From Minutocellus sp. GHC0000111 (Eukaryota), in assembly GCA_977018835.1 (NCBI GenBank), contig OZ361259.1, positions 930,001 to 994,000 of the forward strand: a stretch of 64,000 bases of DNA, read 5' to 3'. The notes beneath the pieces are model-generated. The model saw nothing but the letters and a program-made list of their open reading frames with translations. It was not told the origin of the DNA and made no database searches. Below, in pieces: positions 1 to 31,194 of the stretch. Both the position numbers and the translations under genes were made by a program. Within the stretch, counting starts at the first letter, position 1. Each line of letters starts with the position of its first letter.

Positions 1-312
1 GACGGTGCAGGTGATTTGACAGGTCAGCATAAATCTTTTGTAAAACATGCACTTTGCATGAGAATGGTGCCTGGCAAAGGAACCAGATGGAGGGAGGATG
101 GGGGCCACACCGACCATAGCCATGCCCACACACAAGAGCTCTCCAAAATTGCTTTCCAGAAAAATGGTGGCGCCACAAAGATTGAATTATGAACCCTCAA
201 CACCAGAGAGTACCAACCACAATCTTGGGGGGAAAATACTGGTAGACCTAAGGTCAATTGGATGATGTGACTTTTCTTGGAAATAGAGATTACTATGAAC
301 AAACTAGCTAGT

Positions 313-1172
313 CTACCTACGAGTAGCAGTAGGAAATTCGGAGGGAATCGCCGAAGGACTGTCTGAAGGAAATTCGGAGGGAATCGCCGAAGGAGCATCG
401 GATGGCAACGTGGAAGGAATACTCAAAGATTCTGACGGAGATGTGGACGGAACATCGGAAGTCTTGGAGGGTGTAGCCGAGGGAGCCTTTGTCAGAGCCG
501 GAGTTGGAGGGACGGGGGTGAAAAAATTGGACTTGCTCTTGGATCTGCTGCTGCCACCGGACGTGCTCTTGGATCTGCTGCTGCCACCGGACGTGCTCTT
601 GGATCTGCTGCTGCCACCGGACGTGCTCTTGGATCTGCTGCTGCCACCGGACGTGCTCTTGGATCTGCTGCTGCCACCAGAAGACTTGCTACCTCCGGAC
701 TTGGGCTTGCTCCTGGGGACAACAATTAGGCTATTGGGTCCACGAGTAAGGCCCTTCGGAACAGCTTTGTCAAAAGCGGGATTGACGACAGGAAGGCCTG
801 TGCCTGGATCGAGGCTGAATGGAAGAACTCCCCGAGGATCAAGGAGTTCAGTGAATTCCTGCTCCACCGTGGCTGCAATATTACTTGGATTTTGAGTGTC
901 CAGGGAGGCAAGAACGCTATAGGTAGTGAAAATAAATCCAGGGGTGTAAGGAGAAGGTGCAAGGAAGTCTCCAATCTTCTGCATCAGTTTGCCAGTAAAA
1001 AAGTAGTTGAAGATTTCAGCTGGGCAGCGGCGATAACCGAGACCAAAGGGGCAGTACTTGGGCTTATCGAAAACGGGAATAAATTTCTTATGAGAAGAAG
1101 GAATGATCGTTTGACCGTCAAGATCAGATGGCTTGAGATTTCCGGCAGAAGCTGGACAATTCTTTGGAATGA
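313..1172 (-). pseudogene. Type B copy
   Basis: Junction B at 1172/1173. Confidence 0.85.
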
Positions 1173-1405
1173 CTAGTGCCACACCACATTCATGGCACTG
1201 AGAGACCAAGAGTTGCTGGGATGGCTGTTGGATGCCGGCTGTCTGCTCTGGCACTGCCTTCTGCTGTGTCACTTCAGGGGAGTGACAGATGGTTGCCATG
1301 CGATGAACACTGTGTGCTGACGGTGCAGGTGATTTGACAGGTCAGCATAAATCTTTTGTAAAACATGCACTTTGCATGAGAATGGTGCCTGGCAAAGGAA
1401 CCAGA
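1173..1405 (-). mobile_element. 233-bp non-autonomous Helitron-like element (array copy; further copies start at 3669, 6165, 8661, 12533, 13851, 17753, 21785, 28211; partial at 1-87)
   Basis: Minus strand begins A|TC and ends CTAG with a subterminal hairpin. The same segment occurs with different flanks at 43386-43618. Confidence 0.6.
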
Positions 1406-1630
1406 TGGAGGGAGGATGGGGGCCACACCGACCATAGCCATGCCCACACACAAGAGCTCTCCAAAATTGCTTTCCAGAAAAATGGTGGCGCCACAAAGAT
1501 TGAATTATGAACCCTCAACACCAGAGAGTACCAACCACAATCTTGGGGGGAAAATACTGGTAGACCTAAGGTCAATTGGATGATGTGACTTTTCTTGGAA
1601 ATAGAGATTACTATGAACAAACTAGCTAGT

Positions 1631-3668
1631 CTACCTACGAGTAGCAGTAGGAAATTCGGAGGGAATCGCCGAAGGACTGTCTGAAGGAAATTCGGAGGGA
1701 ATCGCCGAAGGAGCATCGGATGGCAACGTGGAAGGAATACTCAAAGATTCTGACGGAGATGTGGACGGAACATCGGAAGTCTTGGAGGGTGTAGCCGAGG
1801 GAGCCTTTGTCAGAGCCGGAGTTGGAGGGACGGGGGTGAAAAAATTGGACTTGCTCTTGGATCTGCTGCTGCCACCGGACGTGCTCTTGGATCTGCTGCT
1901 GCCACCGGACGTGCTCTTGGATCTGCTGCTGCCACCGGACGTGCTCTTGGATCTGCTGCTGCCACCGGACGTGCTCTTGGATCTGCTGCTGCCACCAGAA
2001 GACTTGCTACCTCCGGACTTGGGCTTGCTCCTGGGGACAACAATTAGGCTATTGGGTCCACGAGTAAGGCCCTTCGGAACAGCTTTGTCAAAAGCGGGAT
2101 TGACGACAGGAAGGCCTGTGCCTGGATCGAGGCTGAATGGAAGAACTCCCCGAGGATCAAGGAGTTCAGTGAATTCCTGCTCCACCGTGGCTGCAATATT
2201 ACTTGGATTTTGAGTGTCCAGGGAGGCAAGAACGCTATAGGTAGTGAAAATAAATCCAGGGGTGTAAGGAGAAGGTGCAAGGAAGTCTCCAATCTTCTGC
2301 ATCAGTTTGCCAGTAAAAAAGTAGTTGAAGATTTCAGCTGGGCAGCGGCGATAACCGAGACCAAAGGGGCAGTACTTGGGCTTATCGAAAACGGGAATAA
2401 ATTTCTTATGAGAAGAAGGAATGATCGTTTGACCGTCAAGATCAGATGGCTTGAGATTTCCGGCAGAAGCTGGACAATTCTTTGGAATGAAGTCAGCGTA
2501 GCGGATAGTGTTGTACTCGGCAGCTGAAGTTTCAAAGGTGGCTGGGTCAAAGTTGTCGTTCAGGGCTTGGATTACTAAGGGGATATGGTATGATGGCGAC
2601 GGGTCATAGCTTTCATCAGCTATTATTTTTTGACATAAGTCAGTGTGGTAGTAGCAGCACAGATGCATGTAGAATCATGGGGAAGAGGAATTAAATTAGA
2701 ATGAGCAGAAACATTTCACAAACAACAAGGGAAAAATCAAGGCCAAAAGACCAAGTGTAAAATGTTGTACATGCACTCACCTAGGGTAAGATTTTTGTTT
2801 GCCCCCTCGGCCTTTTGGGCGGTACTCAACCATATGTCATTTGGCAGCAGCAGACGGAACACCTCACGTACAACGTTTATGCGCTCGTCGTCGGAAGGAG
2901 CGGCCTCGTACTTTGAAAAGAAGTCGATTGGAGGGAACGGCTTGAGGAGGTCAGCGGCGGTGTTGCCAGTAAATTTCTCGACATTGAGATATCCTGGAGC
3001 TGGAATGTTCAGTCCAACAAGTTCTGTGGCAAACTTATCAAAGGCGAGCTTGTAGAGAGTATTGACAAATTGGCCGAAAGCAAGGGCATTGTGCGCAGCC
3101 TCAACGATGATGGACTCAGCAGGAATGCCAGCTTCGATAAAAACGAAAAGCAAAGGGGACCAAATAATGTGTGTTAGTTATGGATATGAATCTTGCTATA
3201 CGGTGGTGAATTGATGATATGAATCACCACGATCTTGAGATAATTTCATCAATGTGTAATGCATTACAATCGATGGTAAAATTGAAAACAAAAGCTTACC
3301 CAAGTTCCACCAGTACACAAAAGTACTTTTGTCCTCTGCGTCGACAACCATATTACGACGTTCTTCGTAATACCCCGTAACGAACGGCTCAAGGCACAGG
3401 GAGGCAAGAACGCTATAGGTAGTGAAAATAAATCCAGGGGTGTAAGGAGAAGGTGCAAGGAAGTCTCCAATCTTCTGCATCAGTTTGCCAGTAAAAAAGT
3501 AGTTGAAGATTTCAGCTGGGCAGCGGCGATAACCGAGACCAAAGGGGCAGTACTTGGGCTTATCGAAAACGGGAATAAATTTCTTATGAGAAGAAGGAAT
3601 GATCGTTTGACCATCAAGATCAGATGGCTTGAGATTTCCGGCAGAAGCTGGACAATTCTTTGGAATGA
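1631..3668 (-). pseudogene. Type C chimeric copy
   Basis: Fusion at 3396/3397. Confidence 0.8.
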
Positions 3669-4126
3669 CTAGTGCCACACCACATTCATGGCACTGAGAG
3701 ACCAAGAGTTGCTGGGATGGCTGTTGGATGCCGGCTGTCTGCTCTGGCACTGCCTTCTGCTGTGTCACTTCAGGGGAGTGACAGATGGTTGCCATGCGAT
3801 GAACACTGTGTGCTGACGGTGCAGGTGATTTGACAGGTCAGCATAAATCTTTTGTAAAACATGCACTTTGCATGAGAATGGTGCCTGGCAAAGGAACCAG
3901 ATGGAGGGAGGATGGGGGCCACACCGACCATAGCCATGCCCACACACAAGAGCTCTCCAAAATTGCTTTCCAGAAAAATGGTGGCGCCACAAAGATTGAA
4001 TTATGAACCCTCAACACCAGAGAGTACCAACCACAATCTTGGGGGGAAAATACTGGTAGACCTAAGGTCAATTGGATGATGTGACTTTTCTTGGAAATAG
4101 AGATTACTATGAACAAACTAGCTAGT

Positions 4127-6164
4127 CTACCTACGAGTAGCAGTAGGAAATTCGGAGGGAATCGCCGAAGGACTGTCTGAAGGAAATTCGGAGGGAATCG
4201 CCGAAGGAGCATCGGATGGCAACGTGGAAGGAATACTCAAAGATTCTGACGGAGATGTGGACGGAACATCGGAAGTCTTGGAGGGTGTAGCCGAGGGAGC
4301 CTTTGTCAGAGCCGGAGTTGGAGGGACGGGGGTGAAAAAATTGGACTTGCTCTTGGATCTGCTGCTGCCACCGGACGTGCTCTTGGATCTGCTGCTGCCA
4401 CCGGACGTGCTCTTGGATCTGCTGCTGCCACCGGACGTGCTCTTGGATCTGCTGCTGCCACCGGACGTGCTCTTGGATCTGCTGCTGCCACCAGAAGACT
4501 TGCTACCTCCGGACTTGGGCTTGCTCCTGGGGACAACAATTAGGCTATTGGGTCCACGAGTAAGGCCCTTCGGAACAGCTTTGTCAAAAGCGGGATTGAC
4601 GACAGGAAGGCCTGTGCCTGGATCGAGGCTGAATGGAAGAACTCCCCGAGGATCAAGGAGTTCAGTGAATTCCTGCTCCACCGTGGCTGCAATATTACTT
4701 GGATTTTGAGTGTCCAGGGAGGCAAGAACGCTATAGGTAGTGAAAATAAATCCAGGGGTGTAAGGAGAAGGTGCAAGGAAGTCTCCAATCTTCTGCATCA
4801 GTTTGCCAGTAAAAAAGTAGTTGAAGATTTCAGCTGGGCAGCGGCGATAACCGAGACCAAAGGGGCAGTACTTGGGCTTATCGAAAACGGGAATAAATTT
4901 CTTATGAGAAGAAGGAATGATCGTTTGACCGTCAAGATCAGATGGCTTGAGATTTCCGGCAGAAGCTGGACAATTCTTTGGAATGAAGTCAGCGTAGCGG
5001 ATAGTGTTGTACTCGGCAGCTGAAGTTTCAAAGGTGGCTGGGTCAAAGTTGTCGTTCAGGGCTTGGATTACTAAGGGGATATGGTATGATGGCGACGGGT
5101 CATAGCTTTCATCAGCTATTATTTTTTGACATAAGTCAGTGTGGTAGTAGCAGCACAGATGCATGTAGAATCATGGGGAAGAGGAATTAAATTAGAATGA
5201 GCAGAAACATTTCACAAACAACAAGGGAAAAATCAAGGCCAAAAGACCAAGTGTAAAATGTTGTACATGCACTCACCTAGGGTAAGATTTTTGTTTGCCC
5301 CCTCGGCCTTTTGGGCGGTACTCAACCATATGTCATTTGGCAGCAGCAGACGGAACACCTCACGTACAACGTTTATGCGCTCGTCGTCGGAAGGAGCGGC
5401 CTCGTACTTTGAAAAGAAGTCGATTGGAGGGAACGGCTTGAGGAGGTCAGCGGCGGTGTTGCCAGTAAATTTCTCGACATTGAGATATCCTGGAGCTGGA
5501 ATGTTCAGTCCAACAAGTTCTGTGGCAAACTTATCAAAGGCGAGCTTGTAGAGAGTATTGACAAATTGGCCGAAAGCAAGGGCATTGTGCGCAGCCTCAA
5601 CGATGATGGACTCAGCAGGAATGCCAGCTTCGATAAAAACGAAAAGCAAAGGGGACCAAATAATGTGTGTTAGTTATGGATATGAATCTTGCTATACGGT
5701 GGTGAATTGATGATATGAATCACCACGATCTTGAGATAATTTCATCAATGTGTAATGCATTACAATCGATGGTAAAATTGAAAACAAAAGCTTACCCAAG
5801 TTCCACCAGTACACAAAAGTACTTTTGTCCTCTGCGTCGACAACCATATTACGACGTTCTTCGTAATACCCCGTAACGAACGGCTCAAGGCACAGGGAGG
5901 CAAGAACGCTATAGGTAGTGAAAATAAATCCAGGGGTGTAAGGAGAAGGTGCAAGGAAGTCTCCAATCTTCTGCATCAGTTTGCCAGTAAAAAAGTAGTT
6001 GAAGATTTCAGCTGGGCAGCGGCGATAACCGAGACCAAAGGGGCAGTACTTGGGCTTATCGAAAACGGGAATAAATTTCTTATGAGAAGAAGGAATGATC
6101 GTTTGACCATCAAGATCAGATGGCTTGAGATTTCCGGCAGAAGCTGGACAATTCTTTGGAATGA
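4127..6164 (-). pseudogene. Type C chimeric copy
   Basis: Fusion at 5892/5893; 2496-bp period. Confidence 0.8.
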
Positions 6165-6622
6165 CTAGTGCCACACCACATTCATGGCACTGAGAGACCA
6201 AGAGTTGCTGGGATGGCTGTTGGATGCCGGCTGTCTGCTCTGGCACTGCCTTCTGCTGTGTCACTTCAGGGGAGTGACAGATGGTTGCCATGCGATGAAC
6301 ACTGTGTGCTGACGGTGCAGGTGATTTGACAGGTCAGCATAAATCTTTTGTAAAACATGCACTTTGCATGAGAATGGTGCCTGGCAAAGGAACCAGATGG
6401 AGGGAGGATGGGGGCCACACCGACCATAGCCATGCCCACACACAAGAGCTCTCCAAAATTGCTTTCCAGAAAAATGGTGGCGCCACAAAGATTGAATTAT
6501 GAACCCTCAACACCAGAGAGTACCAACCACAATCTTGGGGGGAAAATACTGGTAGACCTAAGGTCAATTGGATGATGTGACTTTTCTTGGAAATAGAGAT
6601 TACTATGAACAAACTAGCTAGT

Positions 6623-8660
6623 CTACCTACGAGTAGCAGTAGGAAATTCGGAGGGAATCGCCGAAGGACTGTCTGAAGGAAATTCGGAGGGAATCGCCGA
6701 AGGAGCATCGGATGGCAACGTGGAAGGAATACTCAAAGATTCTGACGGAGATGTGGACGGAACATCGGAAGTCTTGGAGGGTGTAGCCGAGGGAGCCTTT
6801 GTCAGAGCCGGAGTTGGAGGGACGGGGGTGAAAAAATTGGACTTGCTCTTGGATCTGCTGCTGCCACCGGACGTGCTCTTGGATCTGCTGCTGCCACCGG
6901 ACGTGCTCTTGGATCTGCTGCTGCCACCGGACGTGCTCTTGGATCTGCTGCTGCCACCGGACGTGCTCTTGGATCTGCTGCTGCCACCAGAAGACTTGCT
7001 ACCTCCGGACTTGGGCTTGCTCCTGGGGACAACAATTAGGCTATTGGGTCCACGAGTAAGGCCCTTCGGAACAGCTTTGTCAAAAGCGGGATTGACGACA
7101 GGAAGGCCTGTGCCTGGATCGAGGCTGAATGGAAGAACTCCCCGAGGATCAAGGAGTTCAGTGAATTCCTGCTCCACCGTGGCTGCAATATTACTTGGAT
7201 TTTGAGTGTCCAGGGAGGCAAGAACGCTATAGGTAGTGAAAATAAATCCAGGGGTGTAAGGAGAAGGTGCAAGGAAGTCTCCAATCTTCTGCATCAGTTT
7301 GCCAGTAAAAAAGTAGTTGAAGATTTCAGCTGGGCAGCGGCGATAACCGAGACCAAAGGGGCAGTACTTGGGCTTATCGAAAACGGGAATAAATTTCTTA
7401 TGAGAAGAAGGAATGATCGTTTGACCGTCAAGATCAGATGGCTTGAGATTTCCGGCAGAAGCTGGACAATTCTTTGGAATGAAGTCAGCGTAGCGGATAG
7501 TGTTGTACTCGGCAGCTGAAGTTTCAAAGGTGGCTGGGTCAAAGTTGTCGTTCAGGGCTTGGATTACTAAGGGGATATGGTATGATGGCGACGGGTCATA
7601 GCTTTCATCAGCTATTATTTTTTGACATAAGTCAGTGTGGTAGTAGCAGCACAGATGCATGTAGAATCATGGGGAAGAGGAATTAAATTAGAATGAGCAG
7701 AAACATTTCACAAACAACAAGGGAAAAATCAAGGCCAAAAGACCAAGTGTAAAATGTTGTACATGCACTCACCTAGGGTAAGATTTTTGTTTGCCCCCTC
7801 GGCCTTTTGGGCGGTACTCAACCATATGTCATTTGGCAGCAGCAGACGGAACACCTCACGTACAACGTTTATGCGCTCGTCGTCGGAAGGAGCGGCCTCG
7901 TACTTTGAAAAGAAGTCGATTGGAGGGAACGGCTTGAGGAGGTCAGCGGCGGTGTTGCCAGTAAATTTCTCGACATTGAGATATCCTGGAGCTGGAATGT
8001 TCAGTCCAACAAGTTCTGTGGCAAACTTATCAAAGGCGAGCTTGTAGAGAGTATTGACAAATTGGCCGAAAGCAAGGGCATTGTGCGCAGCCTCAACGAT
8101 GATGGACTCAGCAGGAATGCCAGCTTCGATAAAAACGAAAAGCAAAGGGGACCAAATAATGTGTGTTAGTTATGGATATGAATCTTGCTATACGGTGGTG
8201 AATTGATGATATGAATCACCACGATCTTGAGATAATTTCATCAATGTGTAATGCATTACAATCGATGGTAAAATTGAAAACAAAAGCTTACCCAAGTTCC
8301 ACCAGTACACAAAAGTACTTTTGTCCTCTGCGTCGACAACCATATTACGACGTTCTTCGTAATACCCCGTAACGAACGGCTCAAGGCACAGGGAGGCAAG
8401 AACGCTATAGGTAGTGAAAATAAATCCAGGGGTGTAAGGAGAAGGTGCAAGGAAGTCTCCAATCTTCTGCATCAGTTTGCCAGTAAAAAAGTAGTTGAAG
8501 ATTTCAGCTGGGCAGCGGCGATAACCGAGACCAAAGGGGCAGTACTTGGGCTTATCGAAAACGGGAATAAATTTCTTATGAGAAGAAGGAATGATCGTTT
8601 GACCATCAAGATCAGATGGCTTGAGATTTCCGGCAGAAGCTGGACAATTCTTTGGAATGA
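6623..8660 (-). pseudogene. Type C chimeric copy (exon-3 piece fused in frame to exon-1 end)
   Basis: Fusion aaggca|cagggagg at 8388/8389 (VLASL|CLEPF). Confidence 0.8.
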
Positions 8661-9118
8661 CTAGTGCCACACCACATTCATGGCACTGAGAGACCAAGAG
8701 TTGCTGGGATGGCTGTTGGATGCCGGCTGTCTGCTCTGGCACTGCCTTCTGCTGTGTCACTTCAGGGGAGTGACAGATGGTTGCCATGCGATGAACACTG
8801 TGTGCTGACGGTGCAGGTGATTTGACAGGTCAGCATAAATCTTTTGTAAAACATGCACTTTGCATGAGAATGGTGCCTGGCAAAGGAACCAGATGGAGGG
8901 AGGATGGGGGCCACACCGACCATAGCCATGCCCACACACAAGAGCTCTCCAAAATTGCTTTCCAGAAAAATGGTGGCGCCACAAAGATTGAATTATGAAC
9001 CCTCAACACCAGAGAGTACCAACCACAATCTTGGGGGGAAAATACTGGTAGACCTAAGGTCAATTGGATGATGTGACTTTTCTTGGAAATAGAGATTACT
9101 ATGAACAAACTAGCTAGT

Positions 9119-11453
9119 CTACCTACGAGTAGCAGTAGGAAATTCGGAGGGAATCGCCGAAGGACTGTCTGAAGGAAATTCGGAGGGAATCGCCGAAGGA
9201 GCATCGGATGGCAACGTGGAAGGAATACTCAAAGATTCTGACGGAGATGTGGACGGAACATCGGAAGTCTTGGAGGGTGTAGCCGAGGGAGCCTTTGTCA
9301 GAGCCGGAGTTGGAGGGACGGGGGTGAAAAAATTGGACTTGCTCTTGGATCTGCTGCTGCCACCGGACGTGCTCTTGGATCTGCTGCTGCCACCGGACGT
9401 GCTCTTGGATCTGCTGCTGCCACCGGACGTGCTCTTGGATCTGCTGCTGCCACCGGACGTGCTCTTGGATCTGCTGCTGCCACCAGAAGACTTGCTACCT
9501 CCGGACTTGGGCTTGCTCCTGGGGACAACAATTAGGCTATTGGGTCCACGAGTAAGGCCCTTCGGAACAGCTTTGTCAAAAGCGGGATTGACGACAGGAA
9601 GGCCTGTGCCTGGATCGAGGCTGAATGGAAGAACTCCCCGAGGATCAAGGAGTTCAGTGAATTCCTGCTCCACCGTGGCTGCAATATTACTTGGATTTTG
9701 AGTGTCCAGGGAGGCAAGAACGCTATAGGTAGTGAAAATAAATCCAGGGGTGTAAGGAGAAGGTGCAAGGAAGTCTCCAATCTTCTGCATCAGTTTGCCA
9801 GTAAAAAAGTAGTTGAAGATTTCAGCTGGGCAGCGGCGATAACCGAGACCAAAGGGGCAGTACTTGGGCTTATCGAAAACGGGAATAAATTTCTTATGAG
9901 AAGAAGGAATGATCGTTTGACCGTCAAGATCAGATGGCTTGAGATTTCCGGCAGAAGCTGGACAATTCTTTGGAATGAAGTCAGCGTAGCGGATAGTGTT
10001 GTACTCGGCAGCTGAAGTTTCAAAGGTGGCTGGGTCAAAGTTGTCGTTCAGGGCTTGGATTACTAAGGGGATATGGTATGATGGCGACGGGTCATAGCTT
10101 TCATCAGCTATTATTTTTTGACATAAGTCAGTGTGGTAGTAGCAGCACAGATGCATGTAGAATCATGGGGAAGAGGAATTAAATTAGAATGAGCAGAAAC
10201 ATTTCACAAACAACAAGGGAAAAATCAAGGCCAAAAGACCAAGTGTAAAATGTTGTACATGCACTCACCTAGGGTAAGATTTTTGTTTGCCCCCTCGGCC
10301 TTTTGGGCGGTACTCAACCATATGTCATTTGGCAGCAGCAGACGGAACACCTCACGTACAACGTTTATGCGCTCGTCGTCGGAAGGAGCGGCCTCGTACT
10401 TTGAAAAGAAGTCGATTGGAGGGAACGGCTTGAGGAGGTCAGCGGCGGTGTTGCCAGTAAATTTCTCGACATTGAGATATCCTGGAGCTGGAATGTTCAG
10501 TCCAACAAGTTCTGTGGCAAACTTATCAAAGGCGAGCTTGTAGAGAGTATTGACAAATTGGCCGAAAGCAAGGGCATTGTGCGCAGCCTCAACGATGATG
10601 GACTCAGCAGGAATGCCAGCTTCGATAAAAACGAAAAGCAAAGGGGACCAAATAATGTGTGTTAGTTATGGATATGAATCTTGCTATACGGTGGTGAATT
10701 GATGATATGAATCACCACGATCTTGAGATAATTTCATCAATGTGTAATGCATTACAATCGATGGTAAAATTGAAAACAAAAGCTTACCCAAGTTCCACCA
10801 GTACACAAAAGTACTTTTGTCCTCTGCGTCGACAACCATATTACGACGTTCTTCGTAATACCCCGTAACGAACGGCTCAAGGCATGTGAGGGTTGCCATT
10901 GTGTCATTTCGTAGACCAAGACTGCCTCGCCCGATATCAGACAATAGGTCTCGCTGCAAGACAAGATAGTCTTTGACAAAGCTAGGATGATCAGCTTCTC
11001 CGAAATGAATATCGAGAAGTAGCTGGAAAACAATGTCATCCCAAGCGCTGATAATGTTCGTTGCGACACCCTCGGACGCGAGCTGCTCGCTCATGAATTT
11101 AGTGAATCCATCGATGGCCTTATCAATCTTAGGTTCGTAGTACTGCAGCTTGTCACACGTCAAAGCTGACATGTACTGCTTCTTCAACTGGTTGTCTGGT
11201 CCGCGATCTTCAAGGTTGGTAAGAAAGACGGTATTTTTGCCATCTCCTGATTTCAAAGTAGTCGGATCTAAATTGACCAAACTGAGCAGGAAAAACGGCA
11301 CACCACCAAATTTTTGGTGGCCAACATCTTTGTACTGCGGGTCAAGGCCGGGAGTGTCGGGAATTCCTTCAACGCTCTGCCCAAAGGCAGATGGAATAGT
11401 GTTGGCGAACCAAGGGAGAGGAAAATCTTTGTTGATTGGCTCGGGGCCGATTC
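9119..11453 (-). pseudogene. Type A truncated P450 copy
   Basis: Junction A at 11453/11454. Confidence 0.85.
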
Positions 11454-11702
11454 ATGGTGCCTGGCAAAGGAACCAGATGGAGGGAGGATGGGGGCCACAC
11501 CGACCATAGCCATGCCCACACACAAGAGCTCTCCAAAATTGCTTTCCAGAAAAATGGTGGCGCCACAAAGATTGAATTATGAACCCTCAACACCAGAGAG
11601 TACCAACCACAATCTTGGGGGGAAAATACTGGTAGACCTAAGGTCAATTGGATGATGTGACTTTTCTTGGAAATAGAGATTACTATGAACAAACTAGCTA
11701 GT

Positions 11703-12532
11703 CTACCTACGAGTAGCAGTAGGAAATTCGGAGGGAATCGCCGAAGGACTGTCTGAAGGAAATTCGGAGGGAATCGCCGAAGGAGCATCGGATGGCAACG
11801 TGGAAGGAATACTCAAAGATTCTGACGGAGATGTGGACGGAACATCGGAAGTCTTGGAGGGTGTAGCCGAGGGAGCCTTTGTCAGAGCCGGAGTTGGAGG
11901 GACGGGGGTGAAAAAATTGGACTTGCTCTTGGATCTGCTGCTGCCACCGGACGTGCTCTTGGATCTGCTGCTGCCACCGGACGTGCTCTTGGATCTGCTG
12001 CTGCCACCGGACGTGCTCTTGGATCTGCTGCTGCCACCAGAAGACTTGCTACCTCCGGACTTGGGCTTGCTCCTGGGGACAACAATTAGGCTATTGGGTC
12101 CACGAGTAAGGCCCTTCGGAACAGCTTTGTCAAAAGCGGGATTGACGACAGGAAGGCCTGTGCCTGGATCGAGGCTGAATGGAAGAACTCCCCGAGGATC
12201 AAGGAGTTCAGTGAATTCCTGCTCCACCGTGGCTGCAATATTACTTGGATTTTGAGTGTCCAGGGAGGCAAGAACGCTATAGGTAGTGAAAATAAATCCA
12301 GGGGTGTAAGGAGAAGGTGCAAGGAAGTCTCCAATCTTCTGCATCAGTTTGCCAGTAAAAAAGTAGTTGAAGATTTCAGCTGGGCAGCGGCGATAACCGA
12401 GACCAAAGGGGCAGTACTTGGGCTTATCGAAAACGGGAATAAATTTCTTATGAGAAGAAGGAATGATCGTTTGACCGTCAAGATCAGATGGCTTGAGATT
12501 TCCGGCAGAAGCTGGACAATTCTTTGGAATGA
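11703..12532 (-). pseudogene. Type B copy
   Basis: Junction B at 12532/12533. Confidence 0.85.
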
Positions 12533-12990
12533 CTAGTGCCACACCACATTCATGGCACTGAGAGACCAAGAGTTGCTGGGATGGCTGTTGGATGCCGGCT
12601 GTCTGCTCTGGCACTGCCTTCTGCTGTGTCACTTCAGGGGAGTGACAGATGGTTGCCATGCGATGAACACTGTGTGCTGACGGTGCAGGTGATTTGACAG
12701 GTCAGCATAAATCTTTTGTAAAACATGCACTTTGCATGAGAATGGTGCCTGGCAAAGGAACCAGATGGAGGGAGGATGGGGGCCACACCGACCATAGCCA
12801 TGCCCACACACAAGAGCTCTCCAAAATTGCTTTCCAGAAAAATGGTGGCGCCACAAAGATTGAATTATGAACCCTCAACACCAGAGAGTACCAACCACAA
12901 TCTTGGGGGGAAAATACTGGTAGACCTAAGGTCAATTGGATGATGTGACTTTTCTTGGAAATAGAGATTACTATGAACAAACTAGCTAGT

Positions 12991-13850
12991 CTACCTACGA
13001 GTAGCAGTAGGAAATTCGGAGGGAATCGCCGAAGGACTGTCTGAAGGAAATTCGGAGGGAATCGCCGAAGGAGCATCGGATGGCAACGTGGAAGGAATAC
13101 TCAAAGATTCTGACGGAGATGTGGACGGAACATCGGAAGTCTTGGAGGGTGTAGCCGAGGGAGCCTTTGTCAGAGCCGGAGTTGGAGGGACGGGGGTGAA
13201 AAAATTGGACTTGCTCTTGGATCTGCTGCTGCCACCGGACGTGCTCTTGGATCTGCTGCTGCCACCGGACGTGCTCTTGGATCTGCTGCTGCCACCGGAC
13301 GTGCTCTTGGATCTGCTGCTGCCACCGGACGTGCTCTTGGATCTGCTGCTGCCACCAGAAGACTTGCTACCTCCGGACTTGGGCTTGCTCCTGGGGACAA
13401 CAATTAGGCTATTGGGTCCACGAGTAAGGCCCTTCGGAACAGCTTTGTCAAAAGCGGGATTGACGACAGGAAGGCCTGTGCCTGGATCGAGGCTGAATGG
13501 AAGAACTCCCCGAGGATCAAGGAGTTCAGTGAATTCCTGCTCCACCGTGGCTGCAATATTACTTGGATTTTGAGTGTCCAGGGAGGCAAGAACGCTATAG
13601 GTAGTGAAAATAAATCCAGGGGTGTAAGGAGAAGGTGCAAGGAAGTCTCCAATCTTCTGCATCAGTTTGCCAGTAAAAAAGTAGTTGAAGATTTCAGCTG
13701 GGCAGCGGCGATAACCGAGACCAAAGGGGCAGTACTTGGGCTTATCGAAAACGGGAATAAATTTCTTATGAGAAGAAGGAATGATCGTTTGACCGTCAAG
13801 ATCAGATGGCTTGAGATTTCCGGCAGAAGCTGGACAATTCTTTGGAATGA
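12991..13850 (-). pseudogene. Type B copy
   Basis: Junction B at 13850/13851. Confidence 0.85.
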
Positions 13851-14308
13851 CTAGTGCCACACCACATTCATGGCACTGAGAGACCAAGAGTTGCTGGGAT
13901 GGCTGTTGGATGCCGGCTGTCTGCTCTGGCACTGCCTTCTGCTGTGTCACTTCAGGGGAGTGACAGATGGTTGCCATGCGATGAACACTGTGTGCTGACG
14001 GTGCAGGTGATTTGACAGGTCAGCATAAATCTTTTGTAAAACATGCACTTTGCATGAGAATGGTGCCTGGCAAAGGAACCAGATGGAGGGAGGATGGGGG
14101 CCACACCGACCATAGCCATGCCCACACACAAGAGCTCTCCAAAATTGCTTTCCAGAAAAATGGTGGCGCCACAAAGATTGAATTATGAACCCTCAACACC
14201 AGAGAGTACCAACCACAATCTTGGGGGGAAAATACTGGTAGACCTAAGGTCAATTGGATGATGTGACTTTTCTTGGAAATAGAGATTACTATGAACAAAC
14301 TAGCTAGT

Positions 14309-16643
14309 CTACCTACGAGTAGCAGTAGGAAATTCGGAGGGAATCGCCGAAGGACTGTCTGAAGGAAATTCGGAGGGAATCGCCGAAGGAGCATCGGATG
14401 GCAACGTGGAAGGAATACTCAAAGATTCTGACGGAGATGTGGACGGAACATCGGAAGTCTTGGAGGGTGTAGCCGAGGGAGCCTTTGTCAGAGCCGGAGT
14501 TGGAGGGACGGGGGTGAAAAAATTGGACTTGCTCTTGGATCTGCTGCTGCCACCGGACGTGCTCTTGGATCTGCTGCTGCCACCGGACGTGCTCTTGGAT
14601 CTGCTGCTGCCACCGGACGTGCTCTTGGATCTGCTGCTGCCACCGGACGTGCTCTTGGATCTGCTGCTGCCACCAGAAGACTTGCTACCTCCGGACTTGG
14701 GCTTGCTCCTGGGGACAACAATTAGGCTATTGGGTCCACGAGTAAGGCCCTTCGGAACAGCTTTGTCAAAAGCGGGATTGACGACAGGAAGGCCTGTGCC
14801 TGGATCGAGGCTGAATGGAAGAACTCCCCGAGGATCAAGGAGTTCAGTGAATTCCTGCTCCACCGTGGCTGCAATATTACTTGGATTTTGAGTGTCCAGG
14901 GAGGCAAGAACGCTATAGGTAGTGAAAATAAATCCAGGGGTGTAAGGAGAAGGTGCAAGGAAGTCTCCAATCTTCTGCATCAGTTTGCCAGTAAAAAAGT
15001 AGTTGAAGATTTCAGCTGGGCAGCGGCGATAACCGAGACCAAAGGGGCAGTACTTGGGCTTATCGAAAACGGGAATAAATTTCTTATGAGAAGAAGGAAT
15101 GATCGTTTGACCGTCAAGATCAGATGGCTTGAGATTTCCGGCAGAAGCTGGACAATTCTTTGGAATGAAGTCAGCGTAGCGGATAGTGTTGTACTCGGCA
15201 GCTGAAGTTTCAAAGGTGGCTGGGTCAAAGTTGTCGTTCAGGGCTTGGATTACTAAGGGGATATGGTATGATGGCGACGGGTCATAGCTTTCATCAGCTA
15301 TTATTTTTTGACATAAGTCAGTGTGGTAGTAGCAGCACAGATGCATGTAGAATCATGGGGAAGAGGAATTAAATTAGAATGAGCAGAAACATTTCACAAA
15401 CAACAAGGGAAAAATCAAGGCCAAAAGACCAAGTGTAAAATGTTGTACATGCACTCACCTAGGGTAAGATTTTTGTTTGCCCCCTCGGCCTTTTGGGCGG
15501 TACTCAACCATATGTCATTTGGCAGCAGCAGACGGAACACCTCACGTACAACGTTTATGCGCTCGTCGTCGGAAGGTGCGGCCTCGTACTTTGAAAAGAA
15601 GTCGATTGGAGGGAACGGCTTGAGGAGGTCAGCGGCGGTGTTGCCAGTAAATTTCTCGACATTGAGATATCCTGGAGCTGGAATGTTCAGTCCAACAAGT
15701 TCTGTGGCAAACTTATCAAAGGCGAGCTTGTAGAGAGTATTGACAAATTGGCCGAAAGCAAGGGCATTGTGCGCAGCCTCAACGATGATGGACTCAGCAG
15801 GAATGCCAGCTTCGATAAAAACGAAAAGCAAAGGGGACCAAATAATGTGTGTTAGTTATGGATATGAATCTTGCTATACGGTGGTGAATTGATGATATGA
15901 ATCACCACGATCTTGAGATAATTTCATCAATGTGTAATGCATTACAATCGATGGTAAAATTGAAAACAAAAGCTTACCCAAGTTCCACCAGTACACAAAA
16001 GTACTTTTGTCCTCTGCGTCGACAACCATATTACGACGTTCTTCGTAATACCCCGTAACGAACGGCTCAAGGCATGTGAGGGTTGCCATTGTGTCATTTC
16101 GTAGACCAAGACTGCCTCGCCCGATATCAGACAATAGGTCTCGCTGCAAGACAAGATAGTCTTTGACAAAGCTAGGATGATCAGCTTCTCCGAAATGAAT
16201 ATCGAGAAGTAGCTGGAAAACAATGTCATCCCAAGCGCTGATAATGTTCGTTGCGACACCCTCGGACGCGAGCTGCTCGCTCATGAATTTAGTGAATCCA
16301 TCGATGGCCTTATCAATCTTAGGTTCGTAGTACTGCAGCTTGTCACACGTCAAAGCTGACATGTACTGCTTCTTCAACTGGTTGTCTGGTCCGCGATCTT
16401 CAAGGTTGGTAAGAAAGACGGTATTTTTGCCATCTCCTGATTTCAAAGTAGTCGGATCTAAATTGACCAAACTGAGCAGGAAAAACGGCACACCACCAAA
16501 TTTTTGGTGGCCAACATCTTTGTACTGCGGGTCAAGGCCGGGAGTGTCGGGAATTCCTTCAACGCTCTGCCCAAAGGCAGATGGAATAGTGTTGGCGAAC
16601 CAAGGGAGAGGAAAATCTTTGTTGATTGGCTCGGGGCCGATTC
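14309..16643 (-). pseudogene. Type A truncated P450 copy
   Basis: Junction A at 16643/16644. Confidence 0.85.
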
Positions 16644-16892
16644 ATGGTGCCTGGCAAAGGAACCAGATGGAGGGAGGATGGGGGCCACACCGACCATAGC
16701 CATGCCCACACACAAGAGCTCTCCAAAATTGCTTTCCAGAAAAATGGTGGCGCCACAAAGATTGAATTATGAACCCTCAACACCAGAGAGTACCAACCAC
16801 AATCTTGGGGGGAAAATACTGGTAGACCTAAGGTCAATTGGATGATGTGACTTTTCTTGGAAATAGAGATTACTATGAACAAACTAGCTAGT

Positions 16893-17752
16893 CTACCTAC
16901 GAGTAGCAGTAGGAAATTCGGAGGGAATCGCCGAAGGACTGTCTGAAGGAAATTCGGAGGGAATCGCCGAAGGAGCATCGGATGGCAACGTGGAAGGAAT
17001 ACTCAAAGATTCTGACGGAGATGTGGACGGAACATCGGAAGTCTTGGAGGGTGTAGCCGAGGGAGCCTTTGTCAGAGCCGGAGTTGGAGGGACGGGGGTG
17101 AAAAAATTGGACTTGCTCTTGGATCTGCTGCTGCCACCGGACGTGCTCTTGGATCTGCTGCTGCCACCGGACGTGCTCTTGGATCTGCTGCTGCCACCGG
17201 ACGTGCTCTTGGATCTGCTGCTGCCACCGGACGTGCTCTTGGATCTGCTGCTGCCACCAGAAGACTTGCTACCTCCGGACTTGGGCTTGCTCCTGGGGAC
17301 AACAATTAGGCTATTGGGTCCACGAGTAAGGCCCTTCGGAACAGCTTTGTCAAAAGCGGGATTGACGACAGGAAGGCCTGTGCCTGGATCGAGGCTGAAT
17401 GGAAGAACTCCCCGAGGATCAAGGAGTTCAGTGAATTCCTGCTCCACCGTGGCTGCAATATTACTTGGATTTTGAGTGTCCAGGGAGGCAAGAACGCTAT
17501 AGGTAGTGAAAATAAATCCAGGGGTGTAAGGAGAAGGTGCAAGGAAGTCTCCAATCTTCTGCATCAGTTTGCCAGTAAAAAAGTAGTTGAAGATTTCAGC
17601 TGGGCAGCGGCGATAACCGAGACCAAAGGGGCAGTACTTGGGCTTATCGAAAACGGGAATAAATTTCTTATGAGAAGAAGGAATGATCGTTTGACCGTCA
17701 AGATCAGATGGCTTGAGATTTCCGGCAGAAGCTGGACAATTCTTTGGAATGA
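16893..17752 (-). pseudogene. Type B copy
   Basis: Junction B at 17752/17753. Confidence 0.85.
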
Positions 17753-18210
17753 CTAGTGCCACACCACATTCATGGCACTGAGAGACCAAGAGTTGCTGGG
17801 ATGGCTGTTGGATGCCGGCTGTCTGCTCTGGCACTGCCTTCTGCTGTGTCACTTCAGGGGAGTGACAGATGGTTGCCATGCGATGAACACTGTGTGCTGA
17901 CGGTGCAGGTGATTTGACAGGTCAGCATAAATCTTTTGTAAAACATGCACTTTGCATGAGAATGGTGCCTGGCAAAGGAACCAGATGGAGGGAGGATGGG
18001 GGCCACACCGACCATAGCCATGCCCACACACAAGAGCTCTCCAAAATTGCTTTCCAGAAAAATGGTGGCGCCACAAAGATTGAATTATGAACCCTCAACA
18101 CCAGAGAGTACCAACCACAATCTTGGGGGGAAAATACTGGTAGACCTAAGGTCAATTGGATGATGTGACTTTTCTTGGAAATAGAGATTACTATGAACAA
18201 ACTAGCTAGT

Positions 18211-20549
18211 CTACCTACGAGTAGCAGTAGGAAATTCGGAGGGAATCGCCGAAGGACTGTCTGAAGGAAATTCGGAGGGAATCGCCGAAGGAGCATCGGA
18301 TGGCAACGTGGAAGGAATACTCAAAGATTCTGACGGAGATGTGGACGGAACATCGGAAGTCTTGGAGGGTGTAGCCGAGGGAGCCTTTGTCAGAGCCGGA
18401 GTTGGAGGGACGGGGGTGAAAAAATTGGACTTGCTCTTGGATCTGCTGCTGCCACCGGACGTGCTCTTGGATCTGCTGCTGCCACCCACCGGACGTGCTC
18501 TTGGATCTGCTGCTGCCACCGGACGTGCTCTTGGATCTGCTGCTGCCACCGGACGTGCTCTTGGATCTGCTGCTGCCACCAGAAGACTTGCTACCTCCGG
18601 ACTTGGGCTTGCTCCTGGGGACAACAATTAGGCTATTGGGTCCACGAGTAAGGCCCTTCGGAACAGCTTTGTCAAAAGCGGGATTGACGACAGGAAGGCC
18701 TGTGCCTGGATCGAGGCTGAATGGAAGAACTCCCCGAGGATCAAGGAGTTCAGTGAATTCCTGCTCCACCGTGGCTGCAATATTACTTGGATTTTGAGTG
18801 TCCAGGGAGGCAAGAACGCTATAGGTAGTGAAAATAAATCCAGGGGTGTAAGGAGAAGGTGCAAGGAAGTCTCCAATCTTCTGCATCAGTTTGCCAGTAA
18901 AAAAGTAGTTGAAGATTTCAGCTGGGCAGCGGCGATAACCGAGACCAAAGGGGCAGTACTTGGGCTTATCGAAAACGGGAATAAATTTCTTATGAGAAGA
19001 AGGAATGATCGTTTGACCGTCAAGATCAGATGGCTTGAGATTTCCGGCAGAAGCTGGACAATTCTTTGGAATGAAGTCAGCGTAGCGGATAGTGTTGTAC
19101 TCGGCAGCTGAAGTTTCAAAGGTGGCTGGGTCAAAGTTGTCGTTCAGGGCTTGGATTACTAAGGGGATATGGTATGATGGCGACGGGTCATAGCTTTCAT
19201 CAGCTATTATTTTTTGACATAAGTCAGTGTGGTAGTAGCAGCACAGATGCATGTAGAATCATGGGGAAGAGGAATTAAATTAGAATGAGCAGAAACATTT
19301 CACAAACAACAAGGGAAAAATCAAGGCCAAAAGACCAAGTGTAAAATGTTGTACATGCACTCACCTAGGGTAAGATTTTTGTTTGCCCCCTCGGCCTTTT
19401 GGGCGGTACTCAACCATATGTCATTTGGCAGCAGCAGACGGAACACCTCACGTACAACGTTTATGCGCTCGTCGTCGGAAGGAGCGGCCTCGTACTTTGA
19501 AAAGAAGTCGATTGGAGGGAACGGCTTGAGGAGGTCAGCGGCGGTGTTGCCAGTAAATTTCTCGACATTGAGATATCCTGGAGCTGGAATGTTCAGTCCA
19601 ACAAGTTCTGTGGCAAACTTATCAACGGCGAGCTTGTAGAGAGTATTGACAAATTGGCCGAAAGCAAGGGCATTGTGCGCAGCCTCAACGATGATGGACT
19701 CAGCAGGAATGCCAGCTTCGATAAAAACGAAAAGCAAAGGGGACCAAATAATGTGTGTTAGTTATGGATATGAATCTTGCTATACGGTGGTGAATTGATG
19801 ATATGAATCACCACGATCTTGAGATAATTTCATCAATGTGTAATGCATTACAATCGATGGTAAAATTGAAAACAAAAGCTTACCCAAGTTCCACCAGTAC
19901 ACAAAAGTACTTTTGTCCTCTGCGTCGACAACCATATTACGACGTTCTTCGTAATACCCCGTAACGAACGGCTCAAGGCATGTGAGGGTTGCCATTGTGT
20001 CATTTCGTAGACCAAGACTGCCTCGCCCGATATCAGACAATAGGTCTCGCTGCAAGACAAGATAGTCTTTGACAAAGCTAGGATGATCAGCTTCTCCGAA
20101 ATGAATATCGAGAAGTAGCTGGAAAACAATGTCATCCCAAGCGCTGATAATGTTCGTTGCGACACCCTCGGACGCGAGCTGCTCGCTCATGAATTTAGTG
20201 AATCCATCGATGGCCTTATCAATCTTAGGTTCGTAGTACTGCAGCTTGTCACACGTCAAAGCTGACATGTACTGCTTCTTCAACTGGTTGTCTGGTCCGC
20301 GATCTTCAAGGTTGGTAAGAAAGACGGTATTTTTGCCATCTCCTGATTTCAAAGTAGTCGGATCTAAATTGACCAAACTGAGCAGGAAAAACGGCACACC
20401 ACCAAATTTTTGGTGGCCAACATCTTTGTACTGCGGGTCAAGGCCGGGAGTGTCGGGAATTCCTTCAACGCTCTGCCCAAAGGCAGATGGAATAGTGTTG
20501 GCGAACCAAGGGAGAGGAAAATCTTTGTTGATTGGCTCGGGGCCGATTC
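18211..20549 (-). pseudogene. Type A copy with 4-bp frameshift in the VNTR
   Basis: gccacccaccgg at ~18481-18492; junction A at 20549/20550. Confidence 0.85.
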
Positions 20550-20798
20550 ATGGTGCCTGGCAAAGGAACCAGATGGAGGGAGGATGGGGGCCACACCGAC
20601 CATAGCCATGCCCACACACAAGAGCTCTCCAAAATTGCTTTCCAGAAAAATGGTGGCGCCACAAAGATTGAATTATGAACCCTCAACACCAGAGAGTACC
20701 AACCACAATCTTGGGGGGAAAATACTGGTAGACCTAAGGTCAATTGGATGATGTGACTTTTCTTGGAAATAGAGATTACTATGAACAAACTAGCTAGT

Positions 20799-21784
20799 CT
20801 ACCTACGAGTAGCAGTAGGAAATTCGGAGGGAATCGCCGAAGGACTGTCTGAAGGAAATTCGGAGGGCGTCTCCGAAGGACTGTCTGAAGGAAATTCGGA
20901 GGGAATCGCCGAAGGAGCATCGGATGGCAACGTGGAAGGAATACTCAAAGATTCTGACGGAGATGTGGACGGAACATCGGAAGTCTTGGAGGGTGTAGCC
21001 GAGGGAGCCTTTGTCAGAGCCGGAGTTGGAGGGACGGGGGTGAAAAAATTGGACTTGCTCTTGGATCTGCTGCTGCCACCGGACGTGCTCTTGGATCTGC
21101 TGCTGCCACCGGACGTGCTCTTGGATCTGCTGCTGCCACCGGACGTGCTCTTGGATCTGCTGCTGCCACCGGACGTGCTCTTGGATCTGCTGCTGCCACC
21201 GGACGTGCTCTTGGATCTGCTGCTGCCACCGGACGTGCTCTTGGATCTGCTGCTGCCACCGGACGTGCTCTTGGATCTGCTGCTGCCACCAGAAGACTTG
21301 CTACCTCCGGACTTGGGCTTGCTCCTGGGGACAACAATTAGGCTATTGGGTCCACGAGTAAGGCCCTTCGGAACAGCTTTGTCAAAAGCGGGATTGACGA
21401 CAGGAAGGCCTGTGCCTGGATCGAGGCTGAATGGAAGAACTCCCCGAGGATCAAGGAGTTCAGTGAATTCCTGCTCCACCGTGGCTGCAATATTACTTGG
21501 ATTTTGAGTGTCCAGGGAGGCAAGAACGCTATAGGTAGTGAAAATAAATCCAGGGGTGTAAGGAGAAGGTGCAAGGAAGTCTCCAATCTTCTGCATCAGT
21601 TTGCCAGTAAAAAAGTAGTTGAAGATTTCAGCTGGGCAGCGGCGATAACCGAGACCAAAGGGGCAGTACTTGGGCTTATCGAAAACGGGAATAAATTTCT
21701 TATGAGAAGAAGGAATGATCGTTTGACCGTCAAGATCAGATGGCTTGAGATTTCCGGCAGAAGCTGGACAATTCTTTGGAATGA
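20799..21784 (-). pseudogene. Type B copy (8 copies of 30-bp VNTR)
   Basis: Junction B at 21784/21785. Confidence 0.85.
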
Positions 21785-22242
21785 CTAGTGCCACACCACA
21801 TTCATGGCACTGAGAGACCAAGAGTTGCTGGGATGGCTGTTGGATGCCGGCTGTCTGCTCTGGCACTGCCTTCTGCTGTGTCACTTCAGGGGAGTGACAG
21901 ATGGTTGCCATGCGATGAACACTGTGTGCTGACGGTGCAGGTGATTTGACAGGTCAGCATAAATCTTTTGTAAAACATGCACTTTGCATGAGAATGGTGC
22001 CTGGCAAAGGAACCAGATGGAGGGAGGATGGGGGCCACACCGACCATAGCCATGCCCACACACAAGAGCTCTCCAAAATTGCTTTCCAGAAAAATGGTGG
22101 CGCCACAAAGATTGAATTATGAACCCTCAACACCAGAGAGTACCAACCACAATCTTGGGGGGAAAATACTGGTAGACCTAAGGTCAATTGGATGATGTGA
22201 CTTTTCTTGGAAATAGAGATTACTATGAACAAACTAGCTAGT

Positions 22243-24577: not shown

Positions 24578-24826
24578 ATGGTGCCTGGCAAAGGAACCAG
24601 ATGGAGGGAGGATGGGGGCCACACCGACCATAGCCATGCCCACACACAAGAGCTCTCCAAAATTGCTTTCCAGAAAAATGGTGGCGCCACAAAGATTGAA
24701 TTATGAACCCTCAACACCAGAGAGTACCAACCACAATCTTGGGGGGAAAATACTGGTAGACCTAAGGTCAATTGGATGATGTGACTTTTCTTGGAAATAG
24801 AGATTACTATGAACAAACTAGCTAGT

Positions 24827-27131: not shown

Positions 27132-27380
27132 ATGGTGCCTGGCAAAGGAACCAGATGGAGGGAGGATGGGGGCCACACCGACCATAGCCATGCCCACACA
27201 CAAGAGCTCTCCAAAATTGCTTTCCAGAAAAATGGTGGCGCCACAAAGATTGAATTATGAACCCTCAACACCAGAGAGTACCAACCACAATCTTGGGGGG
27301 AAAATACTGGTAGACCTAAGGTCAATTGGATGATGTGACTTTTCTTGGAAATAGAGATTACTATGAACAAACTAGCTAGT

Positions 27381-28210
27381 CTACCTACGAGTAGCAGTAG
27401 GAAATTCGGAGGGAATCGCCGAAGGACTGTCTGAAGGAAATTCGGAGGGAATCGCCGAAGGAGCATCGGATGGCAACGTGGAAGGAATACTCAAAGATTC
27501 TGACGGAGATGTGGACGGAACATCGGAAGTCTTGGAGGGTGTAGCCGAGGGAGCCTTTGTCAGAGCCGGAGTTGGAGGGACGGGGGTGAAAAAATTGGAC
27601 TTGCTCTTGGATCTGCTGCTGCCACCGGACGTGCTCTTGGATCTGCTGCTGCCACCGGACGTGCTCTTGGATCTGCTGCTGCCACCGGACGTGCTCTTGG
27701 ATCTGCTGCTGCCACCAGAAGACTTGCTACCTCCGGACTTGGGCTTGCTCCTGGGGACAACAATTAGGCTATTGGGTCCACGAGTAAGGCCCTTCGGAAC
27801 AGCTTTGTCAAAAGCGGGATTGACGACAGGAAGGCCTGTGCCTGGATCGAGGCTGAATGGAAGAACTCCCCGAGGATCAAGGAGTTCAGTGAATTCCTGC
27901 TCCACCGTGGCTGCAATATTACTTGGATTTTGAGTGTCCAGGGAGGCAAGAACGCTATAGGTAGTGAAAATAAATCCAGGGGTGTAAGGAGAAGGTGCAA
28001 GGAAGTCTCCAATCTTCTGCATCAGTTTGCCAGTAAAAAAGTAGTTGAAGATTTCAGCTGGGCAGCGGCGATAACCGAGACCAAAGGGGCAGTACTTGGG
28101 CTTATCGAAAACGGGAATAAATTTCTTATGAGAAGAAGGAATGATCGTTTGACCGTCAAGATCAGATGGCTTGAGATTTCCGGCAGAAGCTGGACAATTC
28201 TTTGGAATGA
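27381..28210 (-). pseudogene. Type B copy (3' part of exon 3 only)
   Basis: Exon 3 joined at ggaatga|ctag to the 233-bp element. Confidence 0.85.
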
Positions 28211-28664
28211 CTAGTGCCACACCACATTCATGGCACTGAGAGACCAAGAGTTGCTGGGATGGCTGTTGGATGCCGGCTGTCTGCTCTGGCACTGCCTTCT
28301 GCTGTGTCACTTCAGGGGAGTGACAGATGGTTGCCATGCGATGAACACTGTGTGCTGACGGTGCAGGTGATTTGACAGGTCAGCATAAATCTTTTGTAAA
28401 ACATGCACTTTGCATGAGAATGGTGCCTGGCAAAGGAACCAGATGGAGGGAGGATGGGGGCCACACCGACCATAGCCATGCCCACACACAAGAGCTCTCC
28501 AAAATTGCTTTCCAGAAAAATGGTGGCGCCACAAAGATTGAATTATGAACCCTCAACACCAGAGAGTACCACAATCTTGGGGGGAAAATACTGGTAGACC
28601 TAAGGTCAATTGGATGATGTGACTTTTCTTGGAAATAGAGATTACTATGAACAAACTAGCTAGT

Positions 28665-30945: not shown

Positions 30946-31194
30946 ATGGTGCCTGGCAAAGGAACCAGATGGAGGGAGGATGGGGGCCACACCGACCATA
31001 GCCATGCCCACACACAAGAGCTCTCCAAAATTGCTTTCCAGAAAAATGGTGGCGCCACAAAGATTGAATTATGAACCCTCAACACCAGAGAGTACCAACC
31101 ACAATCTTGGGGGGAAAATACTGGTAGACCTAAGGTCAATTGGATGATGTGACTTTTCTTGGAAATAGAGATTACTATGAACAAACTAGCTAGT

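Follow-up and report, generated by a model that had tools for sequence, protein, structure and literature searches.

Partial copies of an expressed P450-like gene in a head-to-tail array, and a segment with Helitron-like ends at its junctions

A satellite can be born from a gene fragment when break repair leaves a tandem duplication or a templated insertion, which is then expanded by unequal crossing-over. Helitrons provide other precedents. In the accessible text on Helraiser, the integration joints are A|TC and CTAG|T, the left end is essential, and capture runs in the 3' direction (PMC4778049). Circles with CTAG|TC joints are known intermediates (PMC5876387, PMC4778049), and head-to-tail Helitron joints are also on record (PMC5876387). 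Helitron2 copies of Chlamydomonas are described with flanking duplications of up to 443 bp and with upstream capture (PMC3627910; also PMC10288648). In plants, tandem arrays of truncated Helitrons have been ascribed to a rolling-circle process by Xiong et al. 2016, as described in the review PMC12628747. Diatom genome papers, in the sections accessible, list Helitrons as a minor class (PMC7466962, PMC11842555, PMC10421102), at 0.8% of one genome (PMC11842555), and the accessible text of PMC10288648 reports no Replitrons in diatoms.

Here we describe a 64,000-nucleotide stretch of Minutocellus sp. GHC0000111 (the window), in which an expressed P450-like gene, itself intact, adjoins 19 near-identical partial copies of its sequence arranged head-to-tail. 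The array contains a 233-bp segment, of which a solo copy lies elsewhere in the window. As in canonical Helitron1 elements and Helraiser, this segment has a 5' TC after A, a 3' CTAG, an apparent, decayed subterminal palindrome and, in the array, a CTAG|T joint. Unlike in those elements, the A and the T belong here to sites that stand in reverse order and are separated by 1,085 bp, the solo copy reads CTAG|C, and neither dispersed copies with varied flanks nor an empty site appeared among the flanks and joints listed, nor a RepHel among the window frames scanned. The Chlamydomonas Helitron2 elements CRe-1/2/3, which make variable target-site duplications, share with this locus a fixed hairpin end, a doubtful 5' end and a long flanking direct repeat; this locus differs in its TC/CTAG ends, a 5' hairpin not above shuffles, the 1,085-bp length of the repeat and the lack of a T-run target. 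The plant arrays, as described in PMC12628747, are alike in their tandem units, their excess of 5' over 3' ends and a partly decayed element, whereas the units here are mostly host exon and intron beside an intact gene, and unit types alternate. Satellite birth by break repair is matched by junctions that are blunt or have 1 nt of microhomology, by the fold-back insertion of one run, by a nearby donor and by mosaic higher-order units, but not by the one junction that falls exactly at CTAG and a hairpin. A literature search, to which subscription journals and supplements were closed, found no host-gene-fragment array seeded by a Helitron.

The intact gene and its array

The gene, the array and the junctions are as follows.

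33875..36747, minus strand: intact P450-like gene, 847 aa; exons 36747-35640, 35471-35121 and 34959-33875; signal-peptide-like start
1..36305, minus strand: tandem array of partial gene copies, running off the left window edge; 19 junctions of three types
1172..1173, minus strand: junction J1, between CTAG and the T(C) of codon 530, in exon 3; blunt (0 nt microhomology); 9 copies
33625..33626, minus strand: junction J3, from a point 24 nt into the segment from its TC end to codon 148 in exon 1; 0-1 nt microhomology; 7 copies
3396..3397, minus strand: junction J2, exon 3 after codon 620 joined to exon 1 at codon 338; blunt; 3 copies
1405..1406, minus strand: junction J0, from the 3' flank of the gene, through A|TC, into the 233-bp segment; 17 copies
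1406..2490, minus strand: 1,085-bp stretch with the rest of exon 3, including the heme-type motif and repeats, the stop and the 3' flank; a direct repeat on both sides of the segment

The reading frame of the intact gene runs through 847 aa with no internal stop, and its expression is seen directly, both introns being spliced in 2/2 RNA runs (in run X8 within a single contig of 2,197 nt). Its naming as a P450 gene in the original prediction holds in part. The FxxGxRxC heme motif expected near the C-terminus of a P450 is found at residue 572 of 847 and is conserved in homologues, of which six match at 35-46%, and the language-model atlas features of one of these, P0002, stand at 0.95-0.96 to P450 clusters. 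The three exon frames and the six homologues gave no match in a Pfam search; the best PDB matches were weak (E of 0.088 and 0.4) and covered only the heme motif, and a single-sequence structure prediction of a homologue reached a pLDDT of 32. We thus call the gene P450-like, on the heme-type motif and the features of the homologue. A neighboring minus-strand gene at 40023-42455 shares the N-terminal design of this gene (33875-36747), namely a signal-peptide-like start, a similar W-G...LKGG..RDL, Ser/Lys/Gly repeats and related 30-nt units, while the bodies of the two differ.

Read directly from the window, the array at 1-36305 is one native stretch rearranged by three back-jumps, J1, J3 and J2. 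The seed order on the minus strand runs from exon 3 to the 3' flank, through A|TC into the segment, and through CTAG|T into the identical 1,085 bp again. The original prediction had placed the CTAG joint at a TC inside exon 3, and this is borne out: the joint is at codon 530 of the 847-aa frame, whose introns are spliced in RNA. It had also stated that the junctions now called J3 all break 24 nt inside the 5' (TC) end, which is true of 7/7, and its counts of nine and seven junctions are right as numbers. They do not count separate events, as J1, J3, J2 and J0 each arose once and were then copied, so that copy numbers are not independent. Its inventory of J1 and J3 was correct but passed over the third, gene-to-gene type, present in three copies. 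J3 is not Helitron-like, and J2 could be interpreted as a deletion within an array of J1 and J3 units. At 3396/3397, 5892/5893 and 8388/8389, J2 makes an in-frame fusion of exon 3 to exon 1 at codon boundaries; the units that carry it lack a promoter and a start codon within the window and make up a higher-order repeat of 2,496 bp.

The array was originally taken as the rolling-circle product of a 1318-bp circle. A rolling-circle concatemer should be a uniform head-to-tail run of one unit. Among the 18 neighboring junction pairs, J3-J1 occurs five times, J1-J3 four, J1-J2 and J2-J1 three each, J3-J3 twice and J1-J1 once. Unit types thus alternate along the array, and CTAG-CTAG neighbors make up 1/18 pairs; the array is therefore not a single rolling-circle concatemer. 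The mixture of three junction types, together with variants that change along the array, speaks against the claim. The unit adjoining the intact gene matches it exactly, while those farther away have their own shared variants and repeat numbers. The array also holds more 5' ends of the segment than 3' ends (17 vs 9). We infer that this pattern is what unequal recombination yields. The copies are gene fragments with no promoter and no start codon, and the array is probably a young satellite rather than a set of functional genes.

The 233-bp segment and its ends

The segment and related features are as follows.

1173..1405, minus strand: 233-bp CpG-depleted segment, A|TC to CTAG; one of 9 complete array copies
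43386..43618, minus strand: solo segment copy, 100% identical; A before, C after; 6.6 kb upstream of the gene start
1175..1199, minus strand: present-day hairpin with an 8-bp stem, -6.2 kcal/mol; ends 2 nt before J1 and overlaps CTAG
1181..1198, minus strand: subterminal palindrome which, with CpG decay reversed, has an 8-bp stem and a 2-nt loop; ends 8 nt before the end
39250..39339, plus strand: putative inverted, diverged relative of the longer segment form; one loose end of run X6 matches 39250-39271 exactly

Exact 233-nt array copies start at 1173, 3669, 6165, 8661, 12533, 13851, 17753, 21785 and 28211, and the solo copy at 43386; a tenth copy in the array, at 1-87, is truncated by the start of the window. 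The identity of solo and array is directly observed, all 10 complete copies being 100% identical over 234 nt including the shared A, and the solo copy is likely the donor of the array segment. The extent given by the original prediction, from A|TC to CTAG on the minus strand, is correct. The A|TC start occurs in array and solo alike and the CTAG end in 10/10 complete copies; 9/9 complete array copies continue with TCATTCC after CTAG, and the solo copy continues with C instead of the usual T, as had been noted.

Since the termini are known only from the comparison of solo and array, each is also an array breakpoint. The CpG observed/expected ratio is 0.19 in the segment, and the depletion extends beyond both termini, beyond TC in the array (0.17) and beyond CTAG at the solo copy. 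This counts against a real 5' terminus, and the 5' end is doubtful. The public runs, moreover, reveal variation in the repeat to which the segment belongs: other copies have at least 255 nt of extra sequence within the segment, at 28335-28337, and a branch leaves 27 nt before the TC. The feature at 39250..39339 appears to be an older inverted relative, in that the 70 nt following the 39250-39271 match resemble the segment (8/1000 shuffles were as good). A shared CTAGCTTG in this inverted relative, at 39464, was considered as proof of a family extending beyond CTAG and rejected, as 444 and 648 of 1000 shuffles did as well. Degenerate patterns of the segment gave 0 and 0 matches in two metagenome-contig scans.

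How unusual are these ends? In the native locus, the chance per junction and strand is 0.0004 for CTAG|T, 0.003 for CTRR|T, 0.0001 for CTAG|TC and 0.019 for ATC. The present-day hairpin was equalled by 1/200 and 10/1000 shuffles. The original prediction described a perfect hairpin on reversal of CpG decay; it exists and is in fact longer, at 8 bp, a stem reached by 57/3000 shuffles and at 5/378 positions in the segment. A decay-reversed stem of 6 bp would be weak by itself, with 175/378 positions passing under loose spacing and 63-144/2000 shuffles under tight spacing, and in the unreversed sequence no perfect 5- or 6-bp stem was found 5-20 nt from the segment end. As the present-day hairpin and the decay-reversed stem share an arm, they were counted once. 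Multiplied over two orientations, the chance of CTAG|T, A|TC and a subterminal stem is ~3e-7 (exact motifs) to 4e-5 (lenient), a figure that ignores the after-the-fact choice of motifs and hairpin-prone breakage. These tests support a resemblance of the CTAG end to a decayed Helitron 3' end beyond chance expectation. That a Rep enzyme made J1 is in our judgment only slightly favored over the contrary, because the motifs were picked afterwards, hairpins attract breaks, and such events are rare beforehand.

Of the hallmarks of Helitron1, the segment has the 5' TC and the 3' CTRR (CTAG in 10/10 complete copies). It does not lie between the A and T of one site without duplication: the solo copy is flanked by A and C, and the array copies by an A and a T from sites 1,085 bp apart. 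The first 40 nt fold at -5.8 kcal/mol, with 25/200 shuffles as good, and so do not form a 5' hairpin of the Helitron2/Helentron kind; no asymmetric terminal inverted repeats (8-15 bp) of that group were obvious by eye, and the ends, read directly, have no short direct repeats at both termini as in Replitrons. The segment cannot be filed as a member of Helitron1, because the single A|T target is absent and neither a RepHel partner, among the window frames scanned, nor dispersed copies, among the flanks listed, came to light. At the solo copy, another CTAG lies 21 nt past the first and precedes a T; it was considered as the true end and dropped, having no empty-site match.

Several other features lie around and beyond the solo copy. 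A Cys-rich frame to its left had no Pfam or atlas match. A strongly CpG-depleted repeat remnant at 45900-48200 holds frames of 372 aa and 180 aa with no Pfam match. At 50571-54057, 25-nt inverted repeats surround frames with weak Mutator-like transposase and zinc-knuckle matches, likely a MULE-type element by these features. A pair of 33-nt inverted repeats bounds the stretch 57604-62151, which contains a 139-nt tandem repeat and an intronless frame of 457 aa; PF18922 is common among the relatives of this frame, one of which is labelled viral metagenome. Short internal telomere-like TTAGGG runs occur at 39713, 40014, 42785, 60448 and 60493, several of them beside repeat remnants.

The array in public sequencing runs

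Twenty public runs contain the window stretch or part of it. Four DNA-like runs, from three samples and two studies, were compared with the solo copy, and one of them may be the source of the window itself. In 4/4 of these, loose ends carry the sequences of J1 and J0, and the depth of the segment far exceeds that of the solo flanks, so the array is real and directly visible outside the window; the loose end at J1 was seen in X1, X3, X4 and X5. An assembly artefact, which the near identity of the units might suggest, is highly improbable: for the array and J1 it is refuted by these junction sequences and by a depth at least 12-fold in 4/4 runs, and stable variants distinguish the units.

The number of J1-type units is 12-17 when measured against the solo left flank and 47-74 against the contig at 43722-44282. 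The former is preferred because in X5 the unique 5' part of the gene matches the solo flanks (0.93), although X4 fits less well (0.51). In X5, the depth of that unique part is 29.2 and that of the solo flanks 27.9-31.3; the reference at 43722-44282 is probably a minor haplotype. A reading with 3-5 copies of the solo flanks, which takes 43722-44282 as the reference and would be at odds with the termini as element ends, was dropped. With the solo left flank as the reference, depth gives no sign of several loci running past CTAG. The stretch 43752-44282, probably a minor haplotype, has 18-36% of the depth of its neighbors in 4/4 runs, with other contigs leaving at 43751; a frame with a weak HMG-box match lies partly within it.

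Among the loose ends listed (24 of 54; 14 of 28), there were two flanks per segment end, a listing from which a rare flank overlapping by 30 nt could escape, and among the joints listed for the 4/4 DNA-like runs none skipped the segment as an empty solo site would. A contig crosses the solo CTAG into the left flank in X3 and X4. Taken together, the crossing contig and the lack of a skipping joint indicate that the solo site is occupied and not a fresh insertion. The dispersed family with fixed ends implied by the original prediction found no support in the flanks and joints listed. The left and right flanks of the solo copy have similar depth in 4/4 runs (ratios 0.75-0.97). The right flank is also joined to other sequence, in full-depth contigs of X1 and X4 and a loose end of X5, with 5 nt in common with the segment end.

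Long units differ between samples, and J1 is common to them. X4 has another exon-1 junction (window 30863, native 36223), with a 6-nt fold-back insertion followed by segment-like sequence, and diverged intron sequence. Most long units in X4 and X5 seem to leave at this 30863 junction rather than at the J3 of the window. Neither J2 nor the J3 of the window is among the joints listed in the four runs, and both are read from the window alone. In the RNA run X6, one contig runs through J0, and the length of another suggests that it continues beyond CTAG into sequence outside the gene; together they hint, weakly, at a unit that has J0 and lacks J1. RNA contigs had no J1, J2 or J3 joints, an absence that was not used as evidence. 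Three other loose-end motifs are absent from the window, and one further motif matches at chance level only.

Possible origins of the array

Our tentative preference is that a local copy of the solo segment was made with Helitron-type joints, and that the resulting flanking duplication of 1,085 bp was expanded by unequal recombination. The segment would be a decayed non-autonomous Helitron-like element, with the solo copy as donor. The TC at its 5' end would have been joined to an A in the 3' flank of the gene, and the CTAG at its other end to a T lying 1,085 bp upstream of that A; the element would thereby sit between two direct repeats, as in a very long target-site duplication; in a variant of this seed, 3' read-through from the solo copy would have been followed by deletions. 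The direct repeats would permit unequal crossing-over or sister exchange, ordinary break repair would add J3, J2 and further junctions, and recombination would shuffle the unit types. In favor of the local copy, both array joints, A|TC and CTAG|T, follow the Helraiser integration rule, and no cryptic start has to be assumed. The identity of solo and array despite strong CpG depletion fits recent copying from one old resident 7-10 kb away. To this extent the original description of a Helitron-like element stands, with its CTAG end above chance. Several observations count against the local copy. At the solo, CTAG is followed by C and not T; an active family should give more than the two flanks per end found among those listed; the enzyme would have to act on ends already decayed; and the J0 site has 37% AT, whereas Helraiser prefers AT-rich sites. 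At least three other junctions are repair-like (J2, J3 and that of X4 with its 6-nt fold-back insertion), and repair is therefore demonstrably active at the locus. The X6 hint of a unit with J0 alone also counts against it, and the longest duplication in the accessible text of the Helitron literature examined is 443 bp (PMC3627910), none being as long as 1,085 bp. No Helitron Pfam family was found in 150/163 frames of at least 62 aa right of 36800, a scan of the frames outside 40000-42750, with the long frame inside that interval covered separately.

Nearly as likely as the local Helitron-type copy is that no transposase was involved, ordinary break repair having made every junction and unequal recombination having amplified short units. 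One version has a 9,969-bp tandem duplication (43618 to 33650, giving J0) shortened by deletions of 8,555 bp (J1) and 7,289 bp (J3); in another, the 233 bp are a templated insertion at the duplication joint. The segment would then be a piece of an old repeat, its "ends" mere breakpoints, and J1 would lie at the base of a hairpin. Breaks and template switches are known to occur at hairpins. A single geometry would account for where all the junctions lie and for the identity of solo and array, J2 and J3 lack Helitron marks and are blunt, the X4 junction has its fold-back insertion, and longer and diverged segment forms exist. Among the flanks listed there is no third one and no empty site, and no RepHel was found among the window frames scanned. 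Under repair alone, however, the occurrence of CTAG|T, A|TC and the subterminal stem together on a single strand would be a coincidence, with the multiplied chance given above, and the similar depth of the two solo flanks in 4/4 runs shows no surplus of full 10-kb units. The route of the original prediction, in which an element already in the 3' flank was used by Rep with the exon 3 TC as its other end, so that a 1318-bp circle or a one-ended copy from the hairpin end seeded the array, is quite unlikely. It would account for the C after the T at J1, otherwise a 1 in 4 chance, and circles with precise CTAG|TC joints are described for Helraiser (PMC5876387, PMC4778049). According to the accessible text of PMC3627910, Chlamydomonas Helitron2 keeps its 3' end, varies at its 5' end and can carry upstream sequence; its long duplications and upstream capture are a precedent for both the local copy and this route. 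The CpG depletion of the 3' flank and the X6 contigs would fit a long-resident repeat there. The cryptic upstream TC that the route requires sits poorly with Helraiser, in which deletion of the left end abolishes transposition and capture is in the 3' direction (PMC4778049). The route also needs two old, decayed residents that are still 100% identical, predicts a run of like units where 1/18 pairs are J1-J1, and leaves J2 and J3 unexplained.

Returning to the local Helitron-type copy, a more specific proposal, which we regard as possible but unlikely, is that the two ends of a decayed element were joined in a single step to targets >1 kb apart in an expressed gene, making the repeats that seeded a satellite. 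The 5' region of the element would then have stayed especially prone to breakage, at points 24 nt and 112 nt inside it, and would keep generating new unit types between strains.

If repair alone was at work, the array is an ordinary young satellite born from the 3' end of a gene. If a Helitron-type strand transfer seeded it, one transposition event would have led to local amplification of a host gene without gene capture, with a duplication longer than those of Chlamydomonas Helitrons, in a lineage (probably diatom, judging by protein style) where Helitrons are listed as minor.
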